Assembly: GCA_017462615.1 (NCBI GenBank)
Contig: JAFTQT010000046.1
Span: 26,892 to 90,891, forward strand
DNA length: 64,000 nucleotides
DNA from: Clostridia bacterium
GTDB taxonomy: Bacteria; Bacillota; Clostridia; Oscillospirales; CAG-272
Direction of reading: 5' to 3'
Each line of letters begins with the position of its first letter. Position 1 is the stretch's first letter. The notes under the pieces were generated by a model, which searched no databases, had not been told where the DNA came from, and saw only the letters and a list, made by a program, of their open reading frames with translations. Shown here one piece after another: positions 1,284 through 17,098 of the stretch. The position numbers and the translations under genes are program-made.

Positions 1284-1650
1284 TTGCCGCTAAAAATTTT
1301 TGTTGGCAACGGACTCTCCATTATCCGCATGAAAAATTTTTGTTCTACATGTTTGCGTAGCACGATCACCTCTGAATGACATTAAAAATTTTTTGTTGCA
1401 ACGGACACTTCATTGTCGAGCGCTAAAATTTTGGATCTGTGTTTTCGTCCTGCGCGATTTTGTTCGGACGACGTTAAAAATTTTTTATTGCAACGGACTC
1501 TTCATCGTTAAGCGCTATTATTTTCACTCCGCATTTTTGAGAAATTGCGCATTTTATCCAGGCTATCATAGGCAGGTGAAATTTATTTTTTACCGCGATG
1601 GACTCTCCATCATTTTTCTCTAAAATTTTGAGTGCCCATGTGATTCGGCA
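1284..1650. repeat. Degenerate bipartite tandem repeat array, 4 units of about 92 bp
   Basis: Motif TTAAAAATTTTTTGTTGCAACGGACNCTTCAT occurs with GGAC cores at 1311, 1403, 1495 and 1600. Copies at 1382-1423 and 1474-1515 match at 37 of 42 positions. A second motif, TAAAATTTTG, is interleaved at about 1331, 1424, 1517 and 1621. Confidence 0.75.
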
Positions 1651-1796
1651 TTTCTCTCTCCGCGCTCCCCATGTCAAATTCCCTCCAATATGATTTTGTA
1701 TAATTTTCAAGCTAAAAAGCTGCGTTATTTTTTTGTTCCAATCCACCAAAAAAGATCGCTTCTTTCTGTATCAAATGCCGAATTTTCAAAAAGTAT

Positions 1797-1825
1797 TTGC
1801 TTTGCTGACAAAGTTATGTTATACT
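1797..1825 (+). promoter_or_regulatory. Sigma-A-type promoter candidate for the 1923 gene
   Basis: TTGCTT (1797-1802), 17 nt, TATACT (1820-1825), with an extended TG at 1817-1818. Confidence 0.4.
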
Positions 1826-1922
1826 ATACTGGAAGACATGGGGGAAAGCCGCTGATTTAGCGCTTTGAGGCGCTGGCAGTACCCTTTTTGTGCTGAAAAT
1901 TTACATATCGGAGGTTTTTCCA

Positions 1923-2351
1923 ATGGCCATCAAAATGCGTGTTCTGTACGCTTCCAACAAGAAAAAGATCGTCTCTATGGCACAGATGATCAAGGCAGAG
2001 TTCGACCTGCCTGTGAACGCTGTAGACAAAATCGAGCAGCCCGCTTATCCCTGTGATAAGGAGCGCATCGTATTCCTGATGTTCTCCCTGAAGGGCGAGC
2101 CCAGCGACGTGGTACGTCGTTTCTGCGGTGAGCTGAACAAGGGTCGCGCCAACAACGTGGCACTGATCGTTGACGGCAATGAGGCCGCTGCCAACAAGAT
2201 GAAGGAGATCCTCTCCGCTGCCGGTACTTCTGTGGCCGACGAGGTATTCTATGTAAAAACCTCCTTCCTTTCCTTCCTGGATTCCATCACTCCCGAGGAA
2301 AAGGAAGCTCTGCTTGCCTACGCGCATCGTATCGTGGACAACCTGCAGTAA
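1923..2351 (+). CDS. Hypothetical protein (possibly flavodoxin-like fold)
   Basis: ORF-track frame 1890..2351. I chose ATG 1923, 8 nt after GGAGG (1910-1914). No family motif recognised. Confidence 0.65.
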   Translation: MAIKMRVLYASNKKKIVSMAQMIKAEFDLPVNAVDKIEQPAYPCDKERIVFLMFSLKGEPSDVVRRFCGELNKGRANNVALIVDGNEAAANKMKEILSAAGTSVADEVFYVKTSFLSFLDSITPEEKEALLAYAHRIVDNLQ

Positions 2352-2423
2352 TATTTGATTTTCCAAAGTCGCGTCGGCCTCTTCCCAGAAGCCAACGCGA
2401 CTTATTGGTTTCCGACAACAAAT

Positions 2424-2463
2424 AATGCCCCCGGCGCATAACTCCTTATGCGCCGGGGGCATT
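2424..2463. terminator. Bidirectional terminator hairpin between convergent genes
   Basis: Perfect 18-bp stem AATGCCCCCGGCGCATAA / TTATGCGCCGGGGGCATT with loop CTCC, between the stops at 2351 (+) and 2482 (-). Confidence 0.7.
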
Positions 2464-2481
2464 AAAAGTTTTAACAAAGCA

Positions 2482-2901
2482 TTACAAATTCATATACTTT
2501 TCGATCAGTGCATCAAATTGTTCTGCATTGCAGATAAAACGGGAGTTGCGACCAACAAAGCGACCATCTTCATCATATCGCATATGCTTGGATTCTATAG
2601 CGGAAATGATGTCGTATTCGCCATTTTCAAAAGTGATTACAAAACACTTTTTTCTGGGATACTTTAGGCTCCCTCCATATTTGGTCATTTCTAAATTTTC
2701 AATATCGCTGTATAACTGTTCGATAACATCCAAGCCCAATTCTTTTAGAACCGTATAAATATACGCATCTTCTGCCTCTACGATTTCAATTTTGGTTACA
2801 CACGAGGCGTCCTTTTCAAATTCCCAATGATAAATCGTATTATCTTTACAACCGGAACAAAGTATGACCACACAGAATAGGATTATCAAAAATCGTTTCA
2901 T
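2482..2901 (-). CDS. Hypothetical lipoprotein
   Basis: N-terminus MKRFLIILFCVVILCSGC is a signal peptide plus lipobox (L-C-S-G-C). The gene is AT-rich (33% G+C in a sampled line). Confidence 0.7.
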   Translation of the reverse strand: MKRFLIILFCVVILCSGCKDNTIYHWEFEKDASCVTKIEIVEAEDAYIYTVLKELGLDVIEQLYSDIENLEMTKYGGSLKYPRKKCFVITFENGEYDIISAIESKHMRYDEDGRFVGRNSRFICNAEQFDALIEKYMNL

Positions 2902-3001
2902 AATCTACCTCCACAATAATCAAGCTTTGAAATGAGGGCTTAATCAACTCGGCCAAATCCATTATACCACAAAGCTCTCATTTTGTCAAATTTTCCCCTA
3001 T

Positions 3002-3027
3002 GCCTGCCGTTTGGCGGGCGCTTTTTT
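3002..3027 (+). terminator. Orphan terminator-like hairpin
   Basis: GCCTGCC-gttt-GGCGGGC (one G-U pair), then GC and TTTTTT. It lies between divergent genes with no plus-strand gene directly upstream. Confidence 0.35.
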
Positions 3028-3088
3028 GTTCATTTACGCTTTCCTGCATTTCCAGCGCCGTTTTTTTGCAAAAAAACGCTCAAGAGTG

Positions 3089-3117
3089 TTGCTATATCCG
3101 CTTTTTTATGCTATAAT
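3089..3117 (+). promoter_or_regulatory. Sigma-A-type promoter candidate
   Basis: TTGCTA (3089-3094), 17 nt, TATAAT (3112-3117), with TGc directly upstream of the -10. Confidence 0.5.
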
Positions 3118-3150
3118 AAGATATTACATTACTATTAAGTGAGGTATCCC

Positions 3151-4365
3151 ATGAAATATTTTGTTCTCATACCGGACGGCATGGCCGACGAGTCCATTGC
3201 CACTCTGCAAGATAAGACTCCCATGGAAGCAGCAAACAAGCCCTGTATGGACGCGCTGGCCAAAACCGCCTTTGTAGGCACGGTCTCCAACGTACCGGAG
3301 GGCATGGTGCCCGAAAGCGACACCGCCAATCTTGCCATTCTTTCCTACGATCCCAAGACCTATTCCAAGGGTCGCTCTCCCCTGGAAGCCGTCAGCATGG
3401 GCATCGAAATGCAACCCGACGAGACCGCTTACCGCTGCAACGTAGTTACCCTCAGCGACGAGGGCGAGGATTACGACGACAAGATCATCCTTGACCACAG
3501 CGCCGACGAGATCACCACCGCCGAGGCTGATCAGCTGATCAAGGCTCTGCAAGCGCATTTCGGCAACGAGAGCCGCAAATTTTATACCGGCGTCAGCTAC
3601 CGCCATTGCCTCATCCGCAAAAACGGCAACGACACCTATCCCTTTATGCGTCCCCACGACATTCTTGGAAAGCGTATTGGCGAATATCTGCCTGCCAAGG
3701 AGGGCGACGGTCGCGAGTTTTACGACCTGATGCGGGAAAGCTTTGACATTTTGAATCATCATCCCGTCAACGAGGCGCGGAGAGCCCGCGGTCTGAAGCC
3801 AGCCAACTCCGCCTGGTTCTGGAGCCCCGGCAAAAAGCCGCAGCTCCCCTCCTTCCGTGAAAAATGGGGGCTTGGTGCCGCCGTGATTTCCGCCGTTGAC
3901 CTCATCAAGGGTATCGGCCTTTGCGCCGGTATGCGCTCTATTGACGTGGAGGGTGCCACCGGCAACGTACACACCAATTACGATGGCAAGGCTGCGGCTG
4001 CCATTGAGGCCTTCCGCGACGGATGCGATTTCGTTTACGTCCACGTGGAGGCGCCCGACGAGTGCGGCCACCGTGCGGAGCTCGAAAACAAGGTACGCTC
4101 CATTGAGTTGATCGATTCCAAGATCCTTGCCCCTGTGCTTGCATACCTAAAGGAGTGTGGCGAGGACTTCAAGGTCATGATCCTGCCCGATCACCCCACG
4201 CCCATCCGCCTGCGCACCCACACCATCGATCCCGTTCCCTTCCTCATTTATGCCTCCGATGCCACCTGCGAGGGCGTTTCCTGCTTCTCGGAGTGCACTG
4301 CCGCTGCCAAGCAGAACTACCTGCCAAACGGTTATCGGCTGCTTGAGTTACTCACGCAAAAATAA
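3151..4365 (+). CDS. Cofactor-independent phosphoglycerate mutase family protein (ApgM-like; 'proposed homoserine kinase' family)
   Basis: MKYFVLIPDGMADE...TPMEAANKPCMDALA...YVHVEAPDECGHRAE...ILPDHPTP is the archaeal-type iPGM/metalloenzyme pattern. ATG 3151 follows GTGAGG. Confidence 0.8.
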   Translation: MKYFVLIPDGMADESIATLQDKTPMEAANKPCMDALAKTAFVGTVSNVPEGMVPESDTANLAILSYDPKTYSKGRSPLEAVSMGIEMQPDETAYRCNVVTLSDEGEDYDDKIILDHSADEITTAEADQLIKALQAHFGNESRKFYTGVSYRHCLIRKNGNDTYPFMRPHDILGKRIGEYLPAKEGDGREFYDLMRESFDILNHHPVNEARRARGLKPANSAWFWSPGKKPQLPSFREKWGLGAAVISAVDLIKGIGLCAGMRSIDVEGATGNVHTNYDGKAAAAIEAFRDGCDFVYVHVEAPDECGHRAELENKVRSIELIDSKILAPVLAYLKECGEDFKVMILPDHPTPIRLRTHTIDPVPFLIYASDATCEGVSCFSECTAAAKQNYLPNGYRLLELLTQK

Positions 4366-4385
4366 TCTGCTATAAGGAGATTACT

Positions 4386-4982
4386 ATGTCAGAATCCAAG
4401 CAAAAAAATGCCTCGGTCAAAAAGCCCTTTGCTGTCGCGGCACTGGATTACGTGGAAATGTTCGTGCTGGCTACAGCCGTGGTCATACTGTTGCTGACCT
4501 TCTGCGCCCGGCTTTGCGTCGTAAGCGGTGATTCCATGAAAAACACGCTTTTCCACGGCCAGACCTTAGTCGTTTCCAATCTGTTTTATACACCGAAGTC
4601 CGGCGACATCATCGTGCTGCACCAGACGGGTGCCATTTACAACGAGCCTATCGTCAAGCGGGTCATTGCCACCGGCGGTCAGCACGTACGCATCGATTAT
4701 ATGAATAACAAGGTCTACGTCTCTGATGACGATGTCTTTACGGAGGACGAGATCATTGACGAAAGCAGTTACGCTTATTTTGATAAAGGAGGGCTCTGGA
4801 AGGAGGCTGCCAGCCTCACGCCTCCCGAGAATTTCGCCGTACCGGATGGTCACCTCTTTGTTTTGGGCGATAACCGCAACGTATCCGCCGACAGCCGTAC
4901 CGACGATATCGGTATGGTGGATGAACGCCGGGTACTGGGCAAGGTGCTTTTCCGCCTTGCGCCCTTTCAATCCTTTTCGTGA
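4386..4982 (+). CDS. lepB: Signal peptidase I
   Basis: N-terminal TM segment. Box B GDSMKNTL, box D VKRVIATGG and box E GDNRNVSADSR are present. Confidence 0.9.
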   Translation: MSESKQKNASVKKPFAVAALDYVEMFVLATAVVILLLTFCARLCVVSGDSMKNTLFHGQTLVVSNLFYTPKSGDIIVLHQTGAIYNEPIVKRVIATGGQHVRIDYMNNKVYVSDDDVFTEDEIIDESSYAYFDKGGLWKEAASLTPPENFAVPDGHLFVLGDNRNVSADSRTDDIGMVDERRVLGKVLFRLAPFQSFS

Positions 4983-4990
4983 GGTAAGCT

Positions 4991-5875
4991 ATGCCAACTG
5001 ATATCATACAATGGTTTCCCGGCCACATGGCCAAAACCAGACGACTGATAGAAGAAAATCTGAAGCACGTGGACGTCGTGATCGAGCTGCTGGATGCCCG
5101 TATCCCACAAAGCTCCCGCAACCCGGAGATCGAACGCCTCACCGCCGGAAAGCCCATCATCACCCTACTCAACAAATCCCAGCTGGCAGACCCTGCCGAA
5201 ACCGAAAAATGGGCGCGGCACTATACCGGAGAGGGGCGCATCTGCATCCCCTTTGATTGCGTTGGCAAAAAGGGTCTTGACAAGCTGATGCCTGCTATTC
5301 GTACCGTGCTTGCTGATAAAATTGAGCGTTACGAGCAAAAGGGCATGAGCGGCCGTCGCTTGAAGGCCATGGTCGTAGGTATTCCCAATGTGGGGAAATC
5401 CTCTCTGATCAATCTACTTGGAGGCACCAAAAAGGCCAAGGTAGAAAACCGTCCGGGCGTGACGCTCCGTCCTCAGTGGGTCTCTACGGACGCGGGGCTT
5501 GACTTGATGGATATGCCCGGCGTGCTTTGGCCTCGCTTTGACCACCGGGAAACCGGAGAAAATCTGGCCATTACCGGTGCCATCAAGGACGATGTGGTGG
5601 AGCTGCTGACCCTTGCTGTGACCCTTTGCCACAAGCTGCGCCGCGATTATCCCGATCAACTGGCTGCCCGCTATAAGCTCGACGTCGCTGAGGTAACGGG
5701 AGAACGCACAGACTACGAATTATTTGAATATATTGGCAAGAAACGCGGATTTCTCATCAGCGGCGGCGAGATCAACGAGGAGCGTACCGCCAATATGCTA
5801 TTAGACGAATTCCGCGCCGCCAAAATCGGCCGCATCACCCTGGACCGCATTCCGGAAGGAGGCCCTTCATGCTGA
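4991..5875 (+). CDS. rbgA: Ribosome biogenesis GTPase A (YlqF/RbgA)
   Basis: WFPGHMAKTRR start, circularly permuted GTPase motifs (LNKSQL, GIPNVGKSSLIN, DMPG), and the conserved position upstream of rnhB. Confidence 0.9.
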   Translation: MPTDIIQWFPGHMAKTRRLIEENLKHVDVVIELLDARIPQSSRNPEIERLTAGKPIITLLNKSQLADPAETEKWARHYTGEGRICIPFDCVGKKGLDKLMPAIRTVLADKIERYEQKGMSGRRLKAMVVGIPNVGKSSLINLLGGTKKAKVENRPGVTLRPQWVSTDAGLDLMDMPGVLWPRFDHRETGENLAITGAIKDDVVELLTLAVTLCHKLRRDYPDQLAARYKLDVAEVTGERTDYELFEYIGKKRGFLISGGEINEERTANMLLDEFRAAKIGRITLDRIPEGGPSC

Positions 5876-6468
5876 ATTACGAGCTGGAAGCAACCCTTGA
5901 GGCTGAGGGCTATACTGCCGTTTGCGGCGTGGATGAGGCGGGACGAGGCCCGCTCTGCGGTCCGGTAGCTGCCGCTGCCTGCATCCTGCCCACGGGTCTT
6001 GTGATCGAGGGGCTGAACGATTCCAAAAAGCTCACCGAGAAAAAGCGAGAGCTGCTTTACGACGAGATCTGCGAAAAGGCCATTGCCTATTGCGTAGTCC
6101 TCGGTAGCGTAGAGGAGATCAACGAAACTGATATTCTTTCCACCACGCTGCACGCCATGCGTCGCGCCATCGAGGGGCTTTCCGTCAAGGCGGATTACGC
6201 TCTCATTGACGGTAACATTACCCGCGGCTTTTCCCTGCCCTGCCGCGCCGTGGTGCATGGTGACGCCATCTCTCCCAGTATCGCAGCTGCCTCGATCCTG
6301 GCCAAGGTCACTCGTGATCGCATTTGTCTGGAGCTGGATGCCGCCCATCCGGAATACGGCATTGCCAAGCACAAGGGCTACGGCACCAAGGCACATATGG
6401 ATGCCTTACGCAAGCACGGTCCCTGTGAGATCTACCGCACCAAATTTATTCGTTTTCTTGACAAATGA
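5869..6468 (+). CDS. rnhB: Ribonuclease HII
   Basis: GVDEAGRGPLCGPV and LNDSKKL motifs. Overlaps the rbgA stop by 7 nt. Confidence 0.9.
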   Translation: MLNYELEATLEAEGYTAVCGVDEAGRGPLCGPVAAAACILPTGLVIEGLNDSKKLTEKKRELLYDEICEKAIAYCVVLGSVEEINETDILSTTLHAMRRAIEGLSVKADYALIDGNITRGFSLPCRAVVHGDAISPSIAAASILAKVTRDRICLELDAAHPEYGIAKHKGYGTKAHMDALRKHGPCEIYRTKFIRFLDK

Positions 6469-6866
6469 AAGCATACACCAGCCAAGAAATCGGAAAGATC
6501 GGCGAAAAGCTGGCCGCCCGCTATCTGAAGCGGCAAGGCTACCGCGTGCTGCATAAAAATCGCCATTTCGGCAAAAACGAGCTGGATCTGGTGGTTAAAA
6601 GCAAAACGCATATCGCCTTTGTGGAGGTCAAGACCCGCTCCTTTGAAAATGAAGGGGAAGCTATCACGCGTCCGGCACTTGCCGTAAATGCCGAAAAGCG
6701 TCGTCGCACCGTGGAAGCTGCCTTTGGATACCTGCACGCACATTCCACGCACCTCGTTCCGCGCTTCGACGTAGTGGAGGTCTATCTCAATCGTTCCCGT
6801 CGGATGAAGCCCTTCAAAATTCATCATATTCCCGACGCTTTTCGCGCCAACGGAGGGGTTCGATAA
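6465..6866 (+). CDS. YraN family (UPF0102) endonuclease-like protein
   Basis: GEKLAARYLKRQGYRVL...ELDLV...IAFVEVKTR pattern. ATGA overlap with the rnhB stop. Confidence 0.85.
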   Translation: MKAYTSQEIGKIGEKLAARYLKRQGYRVLHKNRHFGKNELDLVVKSKTHIAFVEVKTRSFENEGEAITRPALAVNAEKRRRTVEAAFGYLHAHSTHLVPRFDVVEVYLNRSRRMKPFKIHHIPDAFRANGGVR

Positions 6867-7805
6867 ATGAAGCTCATTGATTTTCATTGTGACACACCTG
6901 CCGCATTGTTTCGAAGCAAAGGGACGCTTCGCGTCAACCCAAAGCTGCAGGTCGATATCGAAAGAACCACCGTATTTGACGGCTACTGTCAAATAGCAGC
7001 CTGCTTTTGTCCATCGGCTCTTAATAACGAAGCGGGCTTTGCAATTGTGAAGCAGTATGCCGCCTATTTGCAAAGCGCCATTGCCGCCGAGCCCGATGCG
7101 ATGCTTATATCAAGCGGTAACGAAATGACAGCCACCATGGAAAGCGGAAAGCGTGCCTTTCTTCTTGCTACAGAGGATCTTCGCATTCTGAACGGCGATC
7201 TTTCCCGTGTCAAGCATCTACGGGAATTGGGGGTACGCTTTGCCACGTTGGTTTGGCGCGGCGTTTCCTGCATTGGAGGCGCCCACAACACGGACGAGGG
7301 TCTGTCCGCCTTCGGGCGGGAGGCGGTGACCGCGCTTCTTGAAAGCGGCATCGTGCCCGACGTTTCCCACGCCTCACGAGAAACGCTTCGTCAAACGGCA
7401 GAAATTTGCCACGCTCATAAAAAGCCCTTTGTGGCAACCCACTCCTGTGCCTTTGCGCTATGCTCTCACAGACGCAATCTAACGGATGAGGAGATTCGTC
7501 TGATTGCGGAAAGTGGCGGCGTCATTGGCGTCAATCTTTACCCGCCCTTCCTTCGCGCGGACGCACCCGCTACGCTTTCGGATATTACAGCACACGTGCG
7601 ACATCTGTTCCGTGTAGCCGGTACGGATGCCATAGTCATGGGAACCGATCTTGACGGCGTTGACCTGCTGCCGGAGGGCATCAAAGACGTAGCTGACCTT
7701 CCCCAAATTGTCGACGCCATGCAAAAAGCCGGCTTTACCACCAAGGAAATCGACAGGCTCTTTTACCAAAACGGCCTGCAATTTATAAAAAATCATCTCA
7801 ACTGA
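6867..7805 (+). CDS. Dipeptidase (M19 membrane-dipeptidase family)
   Basis: IDFHCDT, GLSAFGREAV...VPDVSHAS, PFVATHSCA...HRRNLTDEEI and GGVIGVN match the M19 motif order. Confidence 0.78.
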   Translation: MKLIDFHCDTPAALFRSKGTLRVNPKLQVDIERTTVFDGYCQIAACFCPSALNNEAGFAIVKQYAAYLQSAIAAEPDAMLISSGNEMTATMESGKRAFLLATEDLRILNGDLSRVKHLRELGVRFATLVWRGVSCIGGAHNTDEGLSAFGREAVTALLESGIVPDVSHASRETLRQTAEICHAHKKPFVATHSCAFALCSHRRNLTDEEIRLIAESGGVIGVNLYPPFLRADAPATLSDITAHVRHLFRVAGTDAIVMGTDLDGVDLLPEGIKDVADLPQIVDAMQKAGFTTKEIDRLFYQNGLQFIKNHLN

Positions 7806-7822
7806 TCAAAAGGAGTTTACTT

Positions 7823-9307
7823 ATGAAGTTTCAAAGCACCAGAGATAAAAGCGCTGCTAAATTTTCCGCCGCAGAGGTCATCAAGCAAGGCCTTGCTGCC
7901 GACGGCGGTCTGTTCGTTCCCGAAAGCCTGCCTACGCTGACCGAGACTGACATCAAGGCTCTTTGCGCAATGGATTATCCGGAGCGTGCCGCCACCGTTC
8001 TCGGCAAATTTCTGACCGACTATACCGCCGAGGAGTTGCTGGCCGATTGCCGCGCCGCATATGCGGAAAGCTCCTTTGTTGGCGGGGCCGCCCCCTTGCA
8101 CAAAATGGACGATACGATGTATTCCCTGGAGCTGTGGCACGGCCCCACGGCAGCCTTTAAGGATATGGCGCTGCAGATCATGCCTCGCCTGCTTTCCCGC
8201 GCATTGGTAAAGACCGGTGAGGAACGTACGGCTCTGATTTTGGTGGCCACCTCCGGCGATACCGGAAAGGCAGCTCTTGAAGGCTACAAGGACATTGAGC
8301 GCATCAAGATCATGGTATTTTATCCCGTGGATGGCGTCAGCACCGTGCAGAAGCTCCAAATGCAGACACAGACGGGTGATAATGTCAACGTCACCGCCAT
8401 CAAGGGTAATTTTGATGATGCCCAGACTGGCGTCAAGAAGATCTTTGGCAACGCAGAAACCGCAAAGAAGTTGGACGGGATGGGCTACTTCCTCTCCTCC
8501 GCCAATTCCATTAACTGGGGACGTCTCGCACCGCAGATCGTCTATTACGTTTCCGCTTACTGCGATCTGCTCACCAATGGTGCGCTGAAATACGGTGAGC
8601 CTATGAACGTAACGGTACCCACCGGCAACTTCGGCAATATTTTCGCCGCCTATCTAGCAAAGAAAATGGGTCTGCCTATCGATAAGCTGATCTGCGCATC
8701 CAACAAAAATCATATTTTGACCGATTTTCTCACCACGGGTACCTATGACCGCAACCGTGATTTTTACCTGACCATGTCCCCCTCCATGGATATTCTTATT
8801 TCCAGCAATTTGGAGCGTCTTCTCTATTTCGTTGCGGGCCCTGAGCGCACCGCTGCCTACATGAAGCAGCTCAATGAAAACGGTATCTATACCGTTGACG
8901 AAGATATCAAAAACGCCATTTCTCAAAGCTTCTATGGCTACTTTGCTGACGAGCAGCAAACCGCCGAAACCATTCGCCGTACGATGGATCGTTATCACTA
9001 TCTCATTGATACGCACACGGCCGTAGCCATTTCTGCTGCCGAACAATACGTAGAAGAAACCGGTGACCGCAAGCCGATGGTGATCGCTTCCACGGCCAGC
9101 CCCTACAAATTCGCCGCCGACGTGTACGCCTCTCTTTACGAGGGCACCTCTGCCTCTCCTCTGACCGCACTGGACGACCTCTCCGCCAAGAGTGGCACCG
9201 AGATCACCTATCCTCTCCGCGGCATTGGCGAGCGTACGGTCCGCTTCACCGACGTGGTAGAGGCGAGCGAAATGCAGGACGCCGTATTTGCTTATCTCGC
9301 AAAATAA
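7823..9307 (+). CDS. thrC: Threonine synthase (long form)
   Basis: MKFQSTR...GLAADGGLFVPE N-terminus, PLP-lysine motif PTAAFKDMALQ and TSGDTGKAA. Confidence 0.9.
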   Translation: MKFQSTRDKSAAKFSAAEVIKQGLAADGGLFVPESLPTLTETDIKALCAMDYPERAATVLGKFLTDYTAEELLADCRAAYAESSFVGGAAPLHKMDDTMYSLELWHGPTAAFKDMALQIMPRLLSRALVKTGEERTALILVATSGDTGKAALEGYKDIERIKIMVFYPVDGVSTVQKLQMQTQTGDNVNVTAIKGNFDDAQTGVKKIFGNAETAKKLDGMGYFLSSANSINWGRLAPQIVYYVSAYCDLLTNGALKYGEPMNVTVPTGNFGNIFAAYLAKKMGLPIDKLICASNKNHILTDFLTTGTYDRNRDFYLTMSPSMDILISSNLERLLYFVAGPERTAAYMKQLNENGIYTVDEDIKNAISQSFYGYFADEQQTAETIRRTMDRYHYLIDTHTAVAISAAEQYVEETGDRKPMVIASTASPYKFAADVYASLYEGTSASPLTALDDLSAKSGTEITYPLRGIGERTVRFTDVVEASEMQDAVFAYLAK

Positions 9308-9311
9308 AAAA

Positions 9312-9336
9312 GGATGCGGAGCGAGGCTCCGCATCC
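9312..9336. terminator. Bidirectional terminator (thrC / DUF1540 gene)
   Basis: GGATGCGGAGC-gag-GCTCCGCATCC, flanked by an A-run upstream and a short AAAATTT stretch downstream. Confidence 0.7.
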
Positions 9337-9343
9337 GCAAAAT

Positions 9344-9529
9344 TTAGTTTTGCTTGGGCTTGAAGGTCGCACAGATGGTATCAGTGCTGGAGGTGGCATA
9401 GCTAGGGCCTACAGCAATCTTCTGCGCGGTGCAATGGCAATCGCCCTGGTGATACTGGCAATTCTTCACATCACAGGTAATACCGTTGTTGATGTGGTCA
9501 CAGCAGTTTTTCTTTTCATTCATTTCCAT
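9344..9529 (-). CDS. DUF1540-like cysteine-rich small protein
   Basis: MEMNEKKNCCDHINNGITCDVKNCQYHQGDCHCTA has the DUF1540 Cys/His pattern. I chose ATG 9529, 8 nt after AGGAGAG. Confidence 0.7.
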   Translation of the reverse strand: MEMNEKKNCCDHINNGITCDVKNCQYHQGDCHCTAQKIAVGPSYATSSTDTICATFKPKQN

Positions 9530-9607
9530 TTTATTATCTCTCCTTTCGGGTGATAGTAACAGTATGCACCGTTTCACCCCTTTTTATTCTGCAGAAAGGA
9601 GCCGTTT

Positions 9608-10342
9608 ATGGCATTATATACCATTGCTGACCTGCATTTGTCGGCCACGTCAGATCATCCGATGGACGTGTTCGGCTCCCGCTGGCAGCACTATATGCAA
9701 AAAATTGAAAAAAACTGGCGCGCCGTGATCACACCGGAGGACACCGTCGTTTTACCCGGTGATATTTCCTGGGCTATGACGCTAAAGGAGGCGTTGGCTG
9801 ATTTCCAATTGCTCCATTCCCTTCCCGGAAAAAAACTGATCGGCAAGGGCAATCACGATTTCTGGTGGGAGACAGCCGCAAAGCAGCAGCGCTTTTTTGA
9901 TGAGCACGGCTTTGATAGCTTTTCTCTCCTTTATAATAACGCCTACGTAGTAGAGGATTTTATCGTGTGCGGAACCCGTGGCTGGTTTCTTGAAAAAACG
10001 CAGCAGGTCACCGTTGGCGAGGTAGATTACGCCAAAATCGTCAATCGAGAGCTTTTACGACTGAAGCTCAGCCTCAACGCAGCCAAAGCACTGAAGGAAT
10101 CGCACCCGGAAAAGGAAATTCTGGTCTTTCTGCATTTTCCGCCCCTGTGGGGAGACTTCATTTGTGCGGAATTCCTTGATACCATTCAGTCTTTTGGCGT
10201 AAAGCGTTGCTTTTTCGGTCACATTCACGGCAGCTACAACGCTCCCCCAAAACAGATTTATGGTGATCTTTCGCTGCACCTCATTTCGTCAGATTACCTG
10301 AATTTTATTCCTTTTCGCATCCACCAAATTGCAGAACTGTGA
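9608..10342 (+). CDS. Metallophosphoesterase
   Basis: Calcineurin-like phosphoesterase motifs in order: IADLHL, LPGDISW, GNHDFWW, LHFPP, GHIHG. Confidence 0.8.
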   Translation: MALYTIADLHLSATSDHPMDVFGSRWQHYMQKIEKNWRAVITPEDTVVLPGDISWAMTLKEALADFQLLHSLPGKKLIGKGNHDFWWETAAKQQRFFDEHGFDSFSLLYNNAYVVEDFIVCGTRGWFLEKTQQVTVGEVDYAKIVNRELLRLKLSLNAAKALKESHPEKEILVFLHFPPLWGDFICAEFLDTIQSFGVKRCFFGHIHGSYNAPPKQIYGDLSLHLISSDYLNFIPFRIHQIAEL

Positions 10343-10368
10343 ACTTTTTATTATTTTAACGAAAAGTC

Positions 10369-10397
10369 TTGACAAATTAAGGCAAAAACAGTAAAAT
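10369..10397 (+). promoter_or_regulatory. Sigma-A-type promoter candidate for tig
   Basis: TTGACA (10369-10374), 17 nt, TAAAAT (10392-10397). Confidence 0.55.
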
Positions 10398-10437
10398 ATA
10401 CTTTGTATGAATTTTTCTATCATCGGAGGAATTAAAA

Positions 10438-11754
10438 ATGAAATTGGTAAAGTCTGAAAAGATCGAGAACAGCAGATATGAGCTTCATATCTCGGTCGAT
10501 AAGGCTACCTTTGAGGAGGCCGTAAACAAGGCCTACCAGAAGGAAGGTAAAAAGATCAGCGTGCCCGGCTTCCGCAAGGGCAAGGCTCCTCGCTCCATCA
10601 TCGAGAAGATGTACGGCACCGGCGTGTTCTACGAAACCGCCATCAACGACCTCATCCCCGGCGCCTACAGCGAGGCACTGGACGAGTCCGGCATCTCTCC
10701 TGTGGCACAGCCTGAGTTTGACATCGTTTCCATTGACGAGAACGGCCTGCTCCTTTCCGCCAAGGTATATGTAAAGCCCGACGTAACTCTTTCTGATTAT
10801 ACCGGCATCGCTGTCAACCGCACCGTTGCTCCCGTTGAGGATGCAGAGGTTGAAAGCGAGATCAACACCGTTCGTGAGCGCAACTCCCGCGAGGCTGAGG
10901 TTCTTGGCCGCGCTGCCGAGTCCGGCGACACCGCTGTGATCGACTACGAGGGCTTCTGCGACGGCGTCGCTTTCGAGGGCGGCAAGGGCGAGGACTACGC
11001 TCTTAAGCTGGGCTCCAACACCTTCATTCCCGGCTTCGAGGATCAGATCATTGGCCACAAGGTTGATGATGAGTTCGACGTTAACGTCACCTTCCCCACC
11101 GAGTACCACTCCGCAGAGCTGGCCGGCAAGGAGGCTACCTTCAAGTGCAAGATCCACGCCCTCACCCGCGTAGAGCTCCCCGAGCTTGACGACGATTTTG
11201 CTAAGGATGTTTCCGAATTTGACACCATGGATGAATATAAGGCCGATCTGAAGGCAAAGATCGAGAAGAGACACCTTGATTCTGCCGACGCTGCCGTTGG
11301 CGAGCAGCTGGTGGATGCCCTCATCGAGAAGATGGAGGCCGACATTCCCGCTCCTATGTACGATGCCGAGACCGAGAACTTCCTGCGCGACTACGACAAC
11401 AGACTGCGCATGTCCGGTCTTGACCTCAACACCTATATCAAGTACACCGGCATGACCCTGGAGAAGCTCCGCGAGGAGTTCCGTCCCCAGGCCGAGCGCC
11501 AGGTAAAGGCACGCCTTGCTCTCGAGAAGGTTGCCGAGCTTGAAAAGGTTGAGGTGACCGAGGAGGATATCAACGGCGAATACGAGCGCATTGCCGCCGC
11601 ATATAGTATGACGGCCGACAAGGTGAAGGAAAGCCTGCCTGCTGACGTGATCGTAGAGGACCTCCGCGTCAAGAAGGCAATGGACCTCGTCCGCGAAAAG
11701 GCTGTTGTAACCGACGTTGCTCCCGAGGAAAAGAAGACTGAAGAAGAGGCTTGA
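10438..11754 (+). CDS. tig: Trigger factor
   Basis: GFRKGKAP ribosome-binding signature, FKBP-type PPIase middle region, and position upstream of clpP-clpX. Confidence 0.95.
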   Translation: MKLVKSEKIENSRYELHISVDKATFEEAVNKAYQKEGKKISVPGFRKGKAPRSIIEKMYGTGVFYETAINDLIPGAYSEALDESGISPVAQPEFDIVSIDENGLLLSAKVYVKPDVTLSDYTGIAVNRTVAPVEDAEVESEINTVRERNSREAEVLGRAAESGDTAVIDYEGFCDGVAFEGGKGEDYALKLGSNTFIPGFEDQIIGHKVDDEFDVNVTFPTEYHSAELAGKEATFKCKIHALTRVELPELDDDFAKDVSEFDTMDEYKADLKAKIEKRHLDSADAAVGEQLVDALIEKMEADIPAPMYDAETENFLRDYDNRLRMSGLDLNTYIKYTGMTLEKLREEFRPQAERQVKARLALEKVAELEKVEVTEEDINGEYERIAAAYSMTADKVKESLPADVIVEDLRVKKAMDLVREKAVVTDVAPEEKKTEEEA

Positions 11755-11775
11755 TCGCCTTTTCCTAAACAAAAT

Positions 11776-11804
11776 CGGTAGCCGCGACATCGTCGCGGCT
11801 ACCG
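11776..11804 (+). terminator. GC-rich 13-bp hairpin between tig and clpP (no U-tract on plus strand)
   Basis: CGGTAGCCGCGAC-atc-GTCGCGGCTACCG. The plus-strand tail is CGCTCTATA, so it is at best a partial terminator or an RNA-processing/stability element. Confidence 0.35.
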
Positions 11805-11849
11805 CGCTCTATACCTAAAATATCAAATAATGGAGGTTTTGAAAGAATT

Positions 11850-12455
11850 ATGATGGATTTTTTCCGCAATAACGCATTAGTGCCCATGGTCGTCGAGCAG
11901 ACCGGCCACGGCGAGCGTTCCTTTGACATTTTCTCCCGACTCCTCAATGACCGCATCGTTTTTCTCTCCGATGAGGTAAATGACACCACCGCATCTCTTG
12001 TTGTGGCACAGATGCTCTTTTTGGAGGCACAGGATCCCGACAAGGATATCAGCTTTTATATCAACAGCCCCGGCGGCTCCGTGACTGCCGGTATGGCCAT
12101 CTACGACACCATGAATTACATCAAGTGCGATGTTTCCACCATCTGCATCGGCATGGCCGCCTCCATGGGTGCCTTCCTGCTCTCCTCCGGTGCCAAGGGC
12201 AAGCGCTTCGCGCTCCCCAACAGCGAAATTATGATCCACCAGCCCCTCGGCGGTGCCAAGGGCCAGGCTTCTGATATCAAGATCCAGGCTGATCTCATTC
12301 TGCGCACCAGAGACACCCTCAACCGCATCCTGGCCGAGAACACCGGTAAGACCGTCGAGGAGATCGCGAGAGACACCGACCGTGACCACTTTATGACCGC
12401 GAGCGAGGCCCTGGACTACGGCCTTGTGGACAAGGTTCTGGCCAAGCGCGCCTGA
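11850..12455 (+). CDS. clpP: ATP-dependent Clp protease proteolytic subunit
   Basis: [22 protein letters not shown], catalytic GMAASMGA, and IMIHQPLGG. Confidence 0.95.
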
Positions 12456-12471
12456 TTTTTCAGAGGTTACT

Positions 12472-13785
12472 ATGGCAAACAATAACAACAAGAGCGGGCG
12501 TTATTGCTCCTTTTGCGGCCGAAACGAAAGCCAGGCAAACTACCTTATCCCCTCCCCCACCGGCCTTTATATCTGCGATTTTTGCGTGGATGCCTGTGCA
12601 GAGCTGATTGAAGAGACCGAGGAGCTGCAGGCCGAGGGCACCAATCAGGGCGCCTTTACGCTGGATACCCTTCCCCGCCCCACGCAGATTAAAGCGGCGC
12701 TGGACCAGTACGTCATTGGCCAGGATGAGGCCAAGATCGCGCTGTCCGTAGCGGTTTATAATCACTACAAGCGTGTCCTGTATGCCGACCAGGTCAACGG
12801 CGGCAAAAAGGGCAAAAAGGAAGAGGTTGAGGAGACCGACAGCATCGAGCTGCAAAAGAGCAACGTGCTGCTGCTGGGTCCTACCGGTGTAGGTAAAACC
12901 TATCTGGCCCAAACGCTGGCAAAGACGTTACAGGTGCCTTTCGCCATTGCCGACGCCACCACGCTGACTGAGGCGGGCTACGTGGGCGAGGACGTAGAGA
13001 ACATCCTTCTGCGCCTCATTCAAGCCGCCGACTTTGATATTTCCCTTGCTGAGCGCGGCATCATCTATATCGATGAGATCGACAAGATCGCCCGCAAGAG
13101 CGAGAACCGCTCTATCACCCGCGACGTATCGGGCGAGGGCGTGCAGCAGGCTCTGCTGAAAATTCTCGAAGGTACGGTGGCAAATGTGCCTCCCCAAGGC
13201 GGACGCAAGCACCCTAACCAGGAGTTCATCCACATCAACACCAAAAACATTCTCTTTATCTGCGGCGGTGCCTTTGATGGGCTGGAGGCCGTAATCGAAA
13301 AGCGCAAGGGCAACCAGACGGTTGGCTTTGGCGGCGAGATCCTGAAGAAAGAGGAAAAGAAGAAGGCCGGACTTTACCGCGACGTGCTGCCGCAGGATAT
13401 TGTAAAATACGGTCTGATCCCCGAGCTGGTAGGACGCGTTCCCGTGATGGTTTCCCTCACGGAGCTTGACCGTGACGCGCTGGTGCGCATCATTCGCGAG
13501 CCGAAAAATTCCTTGGTGCGCCAGTATCAGAAGCTCTTTGATATGGACGGCGTAAAGCTCACCTTTGCGGAAGGCGCCATGGAGGCTGTGGCCGAGCTGG
13601 CTCTCGCCCGCAACACCGGTGCCAGAGGTCTGCGCGCCATTATGGAAAATCTGATGCTTTCCGCCATGTATGAGATCCCCGCCCGCAAGGACGTCTGTGA
13701 GGTGCAGATCACACCGGCATCCGTACGCGGCGAGGAAAAGCCCCGTTACGTGCTGCTGCGCGATACGGCGGCCCTCGAGGCATAA
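12472..13785 (+). CDS. clpX: ATP-dependent Clp protease ATP-binding subunit ClpX
   Basis: Zinc-binding CSFCG...CDFC N-terminus and Walker [10 protein letters not shown] chose ATG 12472 ([16 protein letters not shown]); the track ORF extends upstream into clpP. Confidence 0.95.
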
Positions 13786-13793
13786 AACAATTC

Positions 13794-13830
13794 AAAAAGT
13801 CGGAGGAAATCCTCCGACTTTTTGAATTTT
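13794..13830 (+). terminator. Rho-independent terminator of clpX
   Basis: AAAAAGTCGGAGG-aaat-CCTCCGACTTTTT followed by GAATTTT. Confidence 0.85.
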
Positions 13831-13847
13831 ACATCACGAACATATTT

Positions 13848-14273
13848 TTAGACCAAATGTTTGGCTGTTTGAAAGCGCAGCAGCAAGCAATAGATGCATA
13901 TTATTATAGCCAAAAGAGAAAAAAGCGTTCCAGATATTCTTAACCGAACAGAGTTTAATAATACCGCTGCTATAAAATCGATGAATGTTGATATCGTCAT
14001 TAATATGAGGAAACAATCTTTAGCCCAAGAGAATTTTTTGCCTAAAAGCAACATTATAGTGTTAGAAAACCATAGAAGAGTTACAATCCCGATCGTAACG
14101 CGACATAAAAGCAATAAATGTTCTTCATAGGCAGCAAAACAACACAGAGGGATAGAGACGATGGAAAACGGGACCAGAACCAGCGAAAGAGTAAAAAGAA
14201 CTCCAATAGTGCAACTAATTTTTATTGCGTATAATAATTTGACAATATTGTACATTTTTTTATACATTCTCAT
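13848..14273 (-). CDS. Hypothetical 4-TM membrane protein (AT-rich island)
   Basis: Four hydrophobic stretches. ATG lies 5 nt after GAGG. No recognisable family. Confidence 0.6.
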   Translation of the reverse strand: MRMYKKMYNIVKLLYAIKISCTIGVLFTLSLVLVPFSIVSIPLCCFAAYEEHLLLLCRVTIGIVTLLWFSNTIMLLLGKKFSWAKDCFLILMTISTFIDFIAAVLLNSVRLRISGTLFSLLAIIICIYCLLLRFQTAKHLV

Positions 14274-14344
14274 TGTCGCCTCGCTTTTTAGAATTTATGG
14301 CATACAATTGTCTTTATAAAAATGACGATCATGCGCCAACAGAA

Positions 14345-14806
14345 TCAAGGCTTGATCTGTTCCGCGATATGTGACAAAAAGCCTAACAACACCTGCCGCC
14401 TATTGGTAGGGCGAATAAAATTACAGAGACACAAGCCTACAGCGGGAATTGTCAACAGCACGAAGCTTGCATCTTCTATTACAAAGCATCCAAACAGCAT
14501 TGCGGCAATCATCAATGCTGGCAACAGCCGAGTAACGATAATGGCTTCTAAGGTGCGCTTAAAACGACATTGAGCTCTTCCATTCGCATCAATCGTTCCG
14601 CTTAAATATTCATCGCTAAAGGTTTGCCACCCGCGTGGCGTTTTTTTAATTTGCAATCTGAACGTATCATTTGAAAGAGAGCCGTAAATTTCTCCAACTT
14701 CTATTTCAAAGGGCGTCGCCGGAACATTTCTCTGCCAGTAAAAGCGGAATTTTTCAATTGGAACTTGAAAATCAAATTCGTGCGATGCTTTTGATATATT
14801 TTTCAT
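14345..14806 (-). CDS. Hypothetical protein with soluble N-domain and two C-terminal TM segments (AT-rich island)
   Basis: Track frame 14345..14851. I chose ATG 14806 (MKNISKASHEF), 10 nt after AAAGGAGG. Confidence 0.6.
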   Translation of the reverse strand: MKNISKASHEFDFQVPIEKFRFYWQRNVPATPFEIEVGEIYGSLSNDTFRLQIKKTPRGWQTFSDEYLSGTIDANGRAQCRFKRTLEAIIVTRLLPALMIAAMLFGCFVIEDASFVLLTIPAVGLCLCNFIRPTNRRQVLLGFLSHIAEQIKP

Positions 14807-14852
14807 TCCTTGCGTTCCTCCTTTGAATATTTGATTACATAAAATTGACATC

Positions 14853-15224
14853 TCATTTCATATCGTCGTGCAAGCAAATGACTTTGGTTTTGGCCCATTG
14901 ATCACCCAAGCGTGAAACATAATCCTCTCGCAATAAATGAAATTCATAAGCAGGAATAACCAGCGATGGTATATTACGAATAATCAACTGCCGCACTCTG
15001 GGTTTTCCTTCCCCCTCTGCATGCACAACCCTTAAAGAAACGCACACCTTTCCCAAGCTTGCGTTGCCAAAAACAATATCCTTGAACAACCAACAGCAAA
15101 TAACTAACATGATCAAAAGGTAAGGCGAAAACCACTTCCCTGAAAATACGACCGATATGGGGCCCAAAATCGCACCAATAACAAACGTATCGATAAATGC
15201 CGCCGCGATTCTTTTGTTAAACAT
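14853..15224 (-). CDS. RDD family membrane protein (AT-rich island)
   Basis: KRIAAAFIDTFVIG...SLGKVCVSLRVV...IIRNI resembles the RDD-domain pattern. Confidence 0.6.
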   Translation of the reverse strand: MFNKRIAAAFIDTFVIGAILGPISVVFSGKWFSPYLLIMLVICCWLFKDIVFGNASLGKVCVSLRVVHAEGEGKPRVRQLIIRNIPSLVIPAYEFHLLREDYVSRLGDQWAKTKVICLHDDMK

Positions 15225-15253
15225 AATGTATCACGATGCTCCAATCTATATTT

Positions 15254-15613
15254 TTAATTTCGCGAAACGATTCTGTCGTAAGAATAAATATCTGTGTCTA
15301 TTTGTTCAAAATTGTATCGCAGATACACCTCATAAACCATGCCACTGGAAACAGTAACAAGACAAGGAATCACGCATTCTTTATTGTGGATTTTTTGTAT
15401 GTGCTGATCAGGAATCAATGTTACGGATGCTACAGCACCATACTGTTTGACAAATTCATCGTCAGAAACAATAAAAGCATTCGCCTGATAAATCAACGCT
15501 TTTTCAACGGAATATTCAGTATATTTTTCTACCAATACATGCGCACCAATACCCAAAATAGCCAATATGGCAGCACAAGTCAGTGCAATGATAATAAAAT
15601 TCTTTTTAGACAT
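15254..15613 (-). CDS. Hypothetical N-terminally anchored small protein (AT-rich island)
   Basis: MSKKNFIIIALTCAAILAILGIG anchor. ATG 15613 is downstream of AAAGGAG; the track start at 15622 is a TTG only 3 nt from the SD. Confidence 0.55.
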   Translation of the reverse strand: MSKKNFIIIALTCAAILAILGIGAHVLVEKYTEYSVEKALIYQANAFIVSDDEFVKQYGAVASVTLIPDQHIQKIHNKECVIPCLVTVSSGMVYEVYLRYNFEQIDTDIYSYDRIVSRN

Positions 15614-15684
15614 TTTACGCAAATACTCCTTTCCAATTTAGTAAAACCTTGCAAATTTATTTAGACAACAAAGCTTCCTTCCTT

Positions 15685-16158
15685 TTAATAGTGATCTGAA
15701 CTCTTGAAATATACTGTTAGTGGGAATTTTTCACTAGATGTTCTTTTTTCAATTACAGTTTGCGGATAAATAACCAGTCCTTTCTCCAACAAAACTATTT
15801 TATTGCTATCGCACCTAAATTCATAGAGAAAGTTTCCGTCCTTATCCACAAACACAATTCTTTGGATGTTTTCACTTTGTCCTGATTTCACTTGAGCAAT
15901 CGAAATATCTAAGTCGTACCTTTGCGCAAATCCTTCTCCCGATATATAACAATCATCAAAAATGTATGCTCGGTCAAATTCAAACGAAAAAATATCTTGA
16001 ACACGTATTTGCTCTTTTCCTTTTAGAGCAGAAATAAGTCTATCGCTATAATTTATCCTGCTTCGTCGCATAATTGTACACGTTACGATTAAAGATAATG
16101 TTAAAACCAATGTTAAGACTATGCATATAATTATTTTACGGTTTAATCTCATATTCAT
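15685..16158 (-). CDS. Hypothetical N-terminally anchored small protein (AT-rich island)
   Basis: MNMRLNRKIIICIVLTLVLTLSLIV anchor. ATG 16158 lies 5 nt after AAAAGGAAA. Confidence 0.55.
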   Translation of the reverse strand: MNMRLNRKIIICIVLTLVLTLSLIVTCTIMRRSRINYSDRLISALKGKEQIRVQDIFSFEFDRAYIFDDCYISGEGFAQRYDLDISIAQVKSGQSENIQRIVFVDKDGNFLYEFRCDSNKIVLLEKGLVIYPQTVIEKRTSSEKFPLTVYFKSSDHY

Positions 16159-16221
16159 AATAGTTTCCTTTTCCACTAAAAGCTGCCCCTTCAATATTTC
16201 GAATGCCCCAAGTTCATTATA

Positions 16222-17019
16222 TCAAAACGAAGATCGCTTGTCAACATACGCCCCGTCCCTGCCGAGCATCTGCTCGCGGAAGTGGGTAGGGCTGGTGCCA
16301 TAGTGCTTATGGAAGGCATTGGAGAAATAATAGGCGTTCTGATAACCGCAGAGTGCTGCGATCTCGTTCACCTTCATTTTTCCCTCCAAGAGCAGCTGCT
16401 TGGCGTATTGCAGCCGCATACGACTAAGCAGCTCCGACGGTGTACAGCCTACGTGGCGCTTGCATTTCCAGATCAACCCCACGTGAGAAAGATGCACCTC
16501 GGCGGCCAGCTCCTCAATGCTGATCTTTTCCGCCAGATGCTCCGAAAAATAGGCAAGCATAAAGGCAATATCCGGATCTCTTGCCCCCTCGGCCATGGGG
16601 GCAGTGCCGTTAAAAATATTGTATTCCAAAATCACCGTTTTCACCGCGTGCAGAAAAATATCATTGGCGTTTTCGGGTAAGGTTAAAGCCGTTTCGTCCA
16701 AATATTCGATCAGGGCGCGCACGTGACTTTTGGGTAAATTCAGTTTTCCTGCAGGCAGCTTTTGCAGGATCGTCTCGTCATCGCTCAAAAAACCCATCTG
16801 ATGAAAGCCGATGGGTGTAATTACGCGCCTTTCAAAGGGGATATTCTTTGGAAAAAATAGAATTTCATCCGCCTCGGCAATATGCTCCTCCCTGTCAAAT
16901 CGCACACAGCACGAGCCCGCCGTTAGAATCAACAGCATATGCCAGCGCCGCGAGCCCTCCGTCATTTCGAAAAAGGAACGTCGCTGAAAGCTGTTATGAA
17001 AAATCAAATGCAGATCCAT
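16222..17019 (-). CDS. AraC family transcriptional regulator
   Basis: C-terminal double HTH: IEELAAEVHLSHVGLIWKCKRHVGCTP...VNEIAALCGYQNAYYFSNAFHKHYGTSPTHFR. Confidence 0.85.
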   Translation of the reverse strand: MDLHLIFHNSFQRRSFFEMTEGSRRWHMLLILTAGSCCVRFDREEHIAEADEILFFPKNIPFERRVITPIGFHQMGFLSDDETILQKLPAGKLNLPKSHVRALIEYLDETALTLPENANDIFLHAVKTVILEYNIFNGTAPMAEGARDPDIAFMLAYFSEHLAEKISIEELAAEVHLSHVGLIWKCKRHVGCTPSELLSRMRLQYAKQLLLEGKMKVNEIAALCGYQNAYYFSNAFHKHYGTSPTHFREQMLGRDGAYVDKRSSF

Positions 17020-17034
17020 CTCATATCACCAACT

Positions 17035-17098
17035 ATAAATTATTATATTTTAATTATAAATTATTTTATTGTATTTGTCAAGCGCGCGTGATAGAATG
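17035..17098 (+). promoter_or_regulatory. Direct-repeat operator plus promoter candidate for the FAD oxidoreductase gene
   Basis: TATAAATTATT occurs at 17035-17045 and 17056-17066, 21 bp apart. Then TTGTAT (17070-17075), 17 nt, TAGAAT (17093-17098). Confidence 0.45.

Follow-up and report, generated by a model that had tools for sequence, protein, structure and literature searches.

The 64-kb stretch of Clostridia bacterium DNA analysed here, which we call the window (contig JAFTQT010000046.1), carries an AT-rich island of five small genes, g1 to g5, between an araC-family regulator gene and clpX, in a slot whose content varies from strain to strain. We judge it reasonably probable, at roughly 60 %, that the island is a small polyimmunity locus of the heterogeneous kind, made up of orphan immunity genes and lodged between core genes; its products would neutralise toxins, with homologous recombination as the probable route of their exchange. 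All of the data come from metagenome-assembled genomes (MAGs) and metagenome contigs. Among gut bacteria, warfare by toxins has been studied thoroughly in the Bacteroidales and Proteobacteria, and far less so in the uncultured Clostridia that dominate the guts of ruminants and other animals. What is new here is a set of protein families that lie outside Pfam, NCBIfam and PADLOC, the pairing of a Pfam domain of unknown function (DUF) with a putative immunity family, and a fixed promoter-terminator slot with three alleles. The analysis provides two candidate toxin-immunity pairs (DUF6973 with an anchored family, and a second RHS tip with a family of transmembrane hairpin proteins), an example of an immunity repertoire that appears to have changed without a mobile element at the site, its three alleles lying behind one fixed promoter, and two families that are apparently missing from the toxin and immunity marker sets used for metagenomes. 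Should the immunity assignment prove wrong, the locus would still be a clean recombination hotspot between core genes.

Three alleles of one chromosomal slot

The slot has at least three alleles. The five-gene allele is present in the window and in L001-L003, which are of the same species and 99.6-99.8 % identical to it in nucleotide sequence. A second allele (L038, L039 and L084) has a different insert, of 934 bp and 41 % G+C, which specifies an ankyrin-repeat protein of 277 aa, anchored by an N-terminal transmembrane (TM) segment, and which is bounded by the promoter and terminator that also bound the five-gene block; L038 follows the window at 97.7 % identity down to position 16209, and again at 98.6 % from position 13824. 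The third allele, in a sister lineage (L079-L083, 11 contigs) with flanks 82-89 % identical to those of the window, contains g1 only. A leader and its Shine-Dalgarno site are common to the ankyrin and g1-only alleles, and homology between the window and L079 picks up precisely at the ATG of g1 (window position 14269), so that the block from g5 to g2 is an insertion relative to the g1-only allele. The island is thus composite, consisting of a g1 cassette and a four-gene insertion.

Between the two lineages g1 is 98.1 % identical (8 differences in 420 nt), with a synonymous divergence (dS) of 0.054, as against 0.36 for clpX, 0.65 for clpP and 0.59 for araC. The binomial probability of so few differences at the clpX rate is 7e-9, and identity drops stepwise from g1 into clpX. 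The low dS of g1 relative to its flanks indicates that g1 was exchanged more recently than the flanks diverged, and the pattern is that expected of homologous replacement through the conserved flanking sequences. The recent exchange of g1, together with the existence of three alleles, rules out the possibility that this is an ancestral core region. The original prediction, made from the DNA sequence of the window without database searches, had taken the block to be accessory rather than common to all relatives, and the three alleles found downstream of clpX, on syntenic contigs whose flanks are 82-98 % identical, bear this out.

The island is atypical in composition and foreign-looking. From 13825 to 16208 its G+C content is 36.7 %, compared with a window average of 51.2 % and about 56 % in the flanks; in 300-nt windows the values are 31.7-43.0 % over 13800-16199, 55-62 % in clpX (12150-13799), 53 % in araC and 57-63 % from 17100 onward. 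Third-codon-position G+C is 0.27-0.46 in the five island genes, 0.61 in araC and 0.71-0.75 in clpX, clpP, tig and the neighbouring gene for a FAD oxidoreductase, and the codon adaptation index, with core genes as the reference, is 0.38-0.54 in the island and 0.72-0.76 in core genes. Within the block the composition is uneven, with g5, g4 and g1 at 32-35 % G+C and g3 and g2 at 42 %. The sharp change in composition that had been proposed is upheld, although the 68 % G+C quoted for clpX was derived from a single 60-nt line and the whole gene is about 57 %; the proposed limits of the block (13831-16221) are close to those set by strain comparison.

On the minus strand the order of genes is araC, g5, g4, g3, g2 and g1, such that the island lies downstream of araC and is convergent with clpX. 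Five same-strand genes had been predicted; all are real open reading frames (ORFs), co-directional with araC, and their products are exact database matches at the lengths given in Table 1 (NCBI MBQ8339313-16, 'MAG: Clostridia bacterium'). Start codons were picked by Shine-Dalgarno spacing, and inspection of the start sites upholds the Shine-Dalgarno sites claimed for four of the five genes. The predicted architectures also hold: g1 has four TM segments, g2 a soluble N-domain and two TM segments, g3 is an RDD protein, and g4 and g5 are anchored at the N-terminus. The five members are mutually unrelated, with differing architectures, no Pfam family in common and no phmmer cross-matches among them.

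The island looks like one transcription unit with a strong promoter of its own, because it has a single consensus promoter, short intergenic gaps (29-71 nt) and one strong terminator. The element at 16216-16244, predicted to be active as a promoter, is kept in both the ankyrin allele (L038) and the g1-only allele (L079), and the 19-bp inverted repeat of the terminator is kept in all three alleles. Two perfect 12/12 matches to the sigma-70 promoter consensus lie less than 900 nt apart on the minus strand, the second of them inside the last codons of araC.

Apart from the terminator hairpin, no integrase, transposase, tRNA gene or flanking repeat is present in this region of the window, nor are there any in the syntenic contigs, and the absences reported from the first reading of the sequence are confirmed. 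There is no IntI integrase ORF and no attC-like inter-cassette repeat of the kind that would indicate an integron, and Rfam has no match within the island.

Relatives of the island proteins and their toxin neighbours

The g5 family comprises 78 homologues, 39-66 % identical and without a Pfam domain; those with a named source are from MAGs of animal or human gut Clostridia. Its alignment shows an N-terminal TM anchor, replaced in one branch by a lipobox (LAAC, LASC or LTSC), and then a domain of about 110 aa which, given the lipoboxes, faces outward. The AlphaFold2 (AF2) model of g5, with a predicted local distance difference test score (pLDDT) of 91, shows two or three helices and, after them, six strands. 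No relative of g5 was found in the PDB by sequence or by structure, Foldseek giving no match at E ≤ 0.001 and no BamE among its top 50.

The toxin of an RHS protein is the domain that follows the core motif, and its immunity protein is encoded by the gene immediately after (Zhang et al., 2012; PMC3482391). In L028 an intact 2038-aa RHS protein, with a signal peptide, YD repeats and an RHS core end (...RYYDPVTGRF...NNPVNRKDPSGQGW), has a C-terminus consisting of a TM helix and DUF6973 (1.7e-22), and a g5 homologue begins 3 nt downstream. An orphan RHS C-terminal module in L012/13 (Rhs_assc_core 4.4e-16, DUF6973 9.5e-26), which sits within an array of such modules, overlaps the start of a g5 homologue, and frameshifted or truncated remnants of DUF6973 lie immediately upstream of g5 homologues in L017 and L011. 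In all, the two are adjacent in four independent MAG species and at 4 of 18 distinct g5-family loci. This context supports the assignment of g5 as a putative immunity protein against DUF6973 tips.

Genes of the g5 family have 29-39 % G+C irrespective of the G+C content of their hosts, and they behave as mobile cassettes. One member, P0095, is found as an identical protein in three unrelated neighbourhoods (L014 7850-8582, L015 1227-1927 and L016 1-705), within a cassette of about 0.7 kb that is 96-98 % identical and consists of an upstream hairpin, a promoter-like sequence (TTGAAC...TGCTAAAAT), a Shine-Dalgarno site and the gene. Fusions are also seen (L028 7931-9070; P0096), one of 379 aa with the anchor, the g5 domain and some 200 aa extra, and one of 236 aa with two g5 domains in tandem; the tandem-domain protein recalls 'polyimmunity proteins'.

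As to the toxin tip itself, DUF6973 is preceded by a TM helix in the L028 toxin, and its N-terminal flank is similar to the C-terminal core in RHS and Tc toxins of known structure. DUF6973 has a local match of 42 residues to PDB 9UU0 (BteO; E = 9e-5), and the domains of L012 (7096-8022) and L028 (7302-7925) match the Pfam Wnt profile in the same region, reproducibly, at sub-threshold values of E = 0.003 and 0.01. These similarities suggest that DUF6973, BteO and the bacterial Min-Wnt (Lipocone) toxins may be one family. The supplements of Burroughs et al. (2025; PMC12419801) list neither DUF6973 nor the accessions of the window. BteO, a type VI secretion system (T6SS) effector of Bacteroides fragilis GA3, consists of a TM helix and a C-terminal domain, is toxic only in the periplasm, targets OmpA and is neutralised by the exported immunity protein BtiO; its authors found no homology to known enzymes (PMC12541434). 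DUF6973 proteins resemble it in the TM helix and in the 42-residue motif block, and g5 in that the BteO immunity protein is exported, but BteO is delivered by a T6SS and acts on OmpA, and the match with DUF6973 is local only. Lipocone toxins (Min-Wnt, TelC) are predicted to attack the head groups of lipid carriers at the membrane, and each of the published immunity proteins (TipC, Imm-BamE, Imm-Jellyroll and Imm-4TM) is a TM protein or a lipoprotein that works in the membrane or outside the cell (Burroughs et al., 2025; PMC12419801). The predicted topology of g5 fits this class, since the family is anchored or lipidated and in homologues is encoded immediately after the Wnt-like tip; g1, with four TM segments, recalls it too. 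Unlike the Min-Wnt pairs (PMC12419801), the g5 gene of the window adjoins no toxin gene, the Wnt matches fall below threshold, and Foldseek gives no BamE-like match.

For g2, a word-index protein search returned its own cluster only, and an exhaustive HMMER search defined a family of 26 proteins of about 150 aa, 24-42 % identical. All are alike in layout, the cytoplasmic alpha/beta N-domain being followed by a TM hairpin and then by a C-terminal helix, and the AF2 model of g2 has a pLDDT of 91.5. In L036/37 an orphan RHS C-terminal fragment (...GYNMYAYCWNNPVMNFDVLG...) lies 18 nt before the start of a g2 homologue; the fragment is glycine-rich, ends in AIVNWIKSWWD and is matched by the tail of the Rhs_assc_core profile (E = 0.0024). 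In L032 the g2 homologue begins 12 nt after an ORF ending in SIGDWISSWFD, and the toxin C-termini of L036 and L032 align with each other (pairwise E = 3e-4). The g2 homologue of L031 is followed by an orphan PT-HINT toxin cassette, in an array of PT-HINT cassettes. These neighbourhoods support the assignment of g2 as putative immunity against a second type of RHS toxin. In L034 (6536-8456), and also in L035, a g2 homologue lies 13 nt after the gene for a 483-aa Lactamase_B + GDPD protein that is without a recognisable trafficking domain; Tox-GDPD is a listed polymorphic-toxin domain (Zhang et al., 2012; PMC3482391).

A possible immunity role for the three other genes is suggested by their company and architecture. 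The one informative relative of g3 is a 124-aa RDD protein in L029, 39 % identical over 69 aa; a metagenome scan with the RDD pair was uninformative for g3, since all that it gave were generic RDD genes of environmental origin, set among housekeeping genes and without any RHS gene nearby. In the L029 locus (308-12323), which belongs to a Ruminococcaceae MAG from the human gut, about 15 small same-strand genes for TM proteins or lipoproteins follow an orphan RHS C-terminal module whose tip resembles a glycine zipper. That array also holds a g5 homologue, and a gene for an N-terminally anchored protein of 116 aa overlaps the short RDD gene by 11 nt. We considered whether g4 might correspond to this 116-aa protein, and found no similarity (BLASTP E = 13). 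In strain L003, otherwise 99.8 % identical to the window, g4 is frameshifted (4693-5048); it is thus dispensable, and may be decaying. The g1 frame is intact across lineages, with a ratio of non-synonymous to synonymous divergence (dN/dS) of 0.18 from 8 changes. Both RHS-adjacent arrays encode 4-TM proteins of a single family (L017 9995-10462 and L029 2944-3399; 151-155 aa, 32 % identical), and a relationship between this family and g1 was rejected at an hhalign probability of 0.3 %.

Comparison with known loci and alternative explanations

Heterogeneous polyimmunity loci are tandem arrays of unrelated immunity genes that are probably polycistronic and vary between strains, and they are known in Firmicutes; ankyrin repeats are a recognised class of immunity protein (PMC3482391). 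The island resembles such loci in being a strain-variable tandem same-strand array of unrelated small genes, some of which are adjacent to toxin genes elsewhere. Polyimmunity loci count as extended from four genes upward (PMC3482391), a threshold that the five genes of the island barely exceed. The island differs from them in having no catalogued Imm family, in that all of its products are membrane-bound, in the absence of a nearby recombinase, and in that immunity is supported for two of the five genes only. There are no RHS, DUF6973 or PT-HINT sequences or toxin remnants in the window, so that locally the island genes would be orphan immunity genes. At the outset the function had been left open between the envelope, immunity and phage exclusion; the neighbourhoods of their homologues are direct contextual evidence of interbacterial immunity for g5 and g2, and there is no such evidence for phage exclusion.

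Other orphan arrays offer further comparisons. In gut Bacteroidales the clusters for acquired interbacterial defence (AID; Ross et al., 2019; bioRxiv 10.1101/471110) are similar in that they are orphan immunity arrays lacking a cognate toxin in the vicinity, pass horizontally among gut bacteria and are proposed to protect against the toxins of other strains, and a putative T6SS islet of Salmonella Typhi (PMC7400221) is an orphan immunity islet to which the island can likewise be compared. However, AID clusters act against T6SS effectors in Gram-negative Bacteroidales and are borne by mobile elements or associated with recombinases, whereas the island is in a fixed chromosomal slot of Clostridia, has no mobile element or recombinase, and is linked through its homologues to toxins of the RHS/YD type, of which the intact L028 example has a Sec signal peptide. 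The strings of esaG and tsaI genes in Staphylococcus aureus and other Firmicutes are also chromosomal, strain-variable immunity arrays, and evolve by homologous recombination (PMC9484751); they differ in being homogeneous paralogues beside type VII secretion loci, while the island is heterogeneous and has no secretion system or toxin nearby.

Several observations weigh against the island being a polyimmunity locus. The remaining g5-family loci, beyond those adjacent to DUF6973, stand alone, and the neighbours of these stand-alone homologues match no catalogued Imm family. Among the g2-family contigs (L031-L037) a toxin adjoins in two or three of five, the rest having no RHS or PT-HINT neighbour, and in L033 the g2 homologue is by itself. 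Foldseek finds no PDB match for the g2 model either, such that neither model resembles a solved immunity protein. The match between DUF6973 and BteO is short, and that with Wnt does not reach the profile threshold. An immunity role for g3 would hang on the single L029 locus, RDD proteins elsewhere being mostly housekeeping-like; the word-index search with g4 found no homologue beyond its own cluster or species; and g1 has neither informative homologues nor any sequence link to toxin loci. Orphan status, moreover, holds for the 64-kb window only.

A rival explanation is that the slot is a hotspot in which accessory genes accumulate without being related, with g5 and perhaps g2 being immunity genes and g1, g3 and g4 having other roles (as small membrane transporters or stress proteins, for example) and no function in common, which we regard as possible, if clearly less probable than a polyimmunity locus. 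Consistent with this, g1, g3 and g4 lack toxin-linked homologues save for the single RDD protein of L029, the uneven G+C content within the block suggests several sources, and g4 is frameshifted in one strain. On the other hand, all five products are small and membrane-bound or anchored and are encoded in one operon with a consensus promoter and gaps of only a few tens of nucleotides, the alternative cargo is also anchored and belongs to a known immunity class, and the arrays that follow RHS genes in L017 and L029 are made up of similarly small TM and lipoprotein genes, with a short RDD gene among those of L029. The same uniformly membrane-bound products, encoded directly downstream of araC and in the same direction, could alternatively be taken as an envelope or membrane-homeostasis operon that responds to a signal through the adjacent AraC regulator and remodels or protects the membrane; one RDD protein has reportedly been described as a cation/proton antiporter. 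This we think unlikely, since elsewhere the genes are found singly and in unrelated contexts, the cargo is wholly replaced between strains that are 98 % identical, the operon, with a consensus promoter of its own, is not fused to araC transcription, and araC is kept in all three alleles whatever the cargo. That the five genes occur together nowhere outside the species also shows that they are not subunits of one machine.

Small AT-rich genes for membrane proteins in variable islets are typical of superinfection exclusion, and it could be supposed that the island encodes phage-exclusion or abortive-infection proteins or is the remnant of a prophage. We consider this very improbable. When the five proteins were searched against Pfam, NCBIfam, PADLOC and PHROGs the RDD domain was the only match, in agreement with the first reading of the sequence, in which no other family was recognised; PADLOC gave nothing at E ≤ 1, and the best PHROGs value was E = 0.057, leaving none below 0.05. 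A search of 2.9 million viral contigs turned up no relative of any island protein, g5 had no match among plasmid records, the island DNA had none among phage records, and there are no phage genes, integrases or att repeats nearby. That the frames are spurious ones in AT-rich non-coding DNA is less credible still. Such DNA has few stop-free frames and the question was worth checking, particularly as g1 and g4 have no distant homologues, but the g5 and g2 families are conserved and give models with pLDDT values of about 91, g3 scores above the Pfam cut-off, the g1 frame has survived across lineages, and five genes are packed on one strand, four of them with Shine-Dalgarno sites. This excludes spurious frames in the case of g5, g2 and g3 and makes them unlikely in that of g1.

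If the island is indeed a polyimmunity locus, the consensus and constitutive-looking promoter at the araC end would drive whichever cargo is in the slot, the clpX terminator would end the transcript, and the cargo would be exchanged by homologous recombination through the conserved araC and clpX flanks. The products, in or on the cytoplasmic membrane, would neutralise the toxin domains of RHS/YD polymorphic toxins from competing gut Clostridia. In this scheme g5, tethered on the outer face of the membrane, would bind DUF6973-type tips, and g2, with its TM hairpin and cytoplasmic domain, would counter the second, glycine-rich RHS toxin tip. A bolder proposal, which we put forward tentatively and would not expect to hold in full, is that the araC-clpX slot is a recombinase-free 'expression dock', in which a promoter and a terminator located in core genes would let incoming immunity cassettes be expressed at once and be swapped by homologous recombination. 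Its cargo might then comprise several uncatalogued immunity families, including the first for RHS-borne DUF6973 (Min-Wnt-like) toxins in gut Clostridia and short RDD and 4-TM immunity proteins against membrane-acting toxins.

Coordinates and neighbouring features

Table 1. Features of the araC-clpX region, in window coordinates
Feature	Position	Strand	Remarks
clpX	12472..13785	+	conserved right flank, convergent; identified by ORF, translation and the Pfam families of the syntenic gene
Bidirectional terminator	13789..13828	.	perfect 19-bp inverted repeat; common to clpX and the island; right boundary of the slot
Island proper (strain-variable segment)	13825..16208	-	2384 bp, 36.7 % G+C; from alignment with L038
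g1	13848..14273	-	141 aa, four TM segments; separately exchanged cassette; sole cargo in L079-L083
Four-gene block g5-g4-g3-g2	14270..16208	-	absent in the g1-only allele
Weak terminator-like hairpin	14323..14338	-	just 3' of g2, inside the four-gene insertion; consensus scan only; 5-bp stem and T run
g2	14345..14806	-	153 aa; cytoplasmic N-domain of ~88 aa, TM hairpin and C-terminal helix; putative immunity against a second RHS toxin type
g3	14853..15224	-	123-aa short RDD-family membrane protein; Pfam RDD (PF06271) 37.1 bits against a cut-off of 24.1, E = 4.7e-9
g4	15254..15613	-	119 aa, N-terminally anchored; species-restricted orphan; possible immunity role, from position only
g5	15685..16158	-	157 aa; N-terminal TM anchor and conserved domain of ~110 aa; putative surface-tethered immunity against DUF6973 RHS toxin tips
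Predicted island promoter	16216..16244	-	TTGACA-17 nt-TATAAT with extended -10 TG; 12/12 consensus; overlaps the araC stop codon
araC-family regulator gene	16222..17019	-	conserved left flank; Pfam HTH_18 1.9e-21
Predicted promoter of araC	17053..17081	-	12/12 TTGACA-17 nt-TATAAT; consensus scan

The mechanically called clpX ORF begins at a TTG that overlaps clpP (12424-12471); the start that is conserved, also in the sister lineage, is the ATG at position 12472.

What appears to be another variable slot of this type lies just 3' of the end of ppdK, where g5 homologues of three MAG species (L021 1082-3161, L023 2057-3604 and L024 551-2035) are accompanied by differing small AT-rich ORFs. Within the window itself the only other patch that is comparably AT-rich is at 1001-3000 (37-39 % G+C). 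It includes, at 2482-2901 on the minus strand, a gene for a predicted 139-aa lipoprotein (MKRFLIILFCVVILCSGC...), which may be a small accessory or immunity-like gene.

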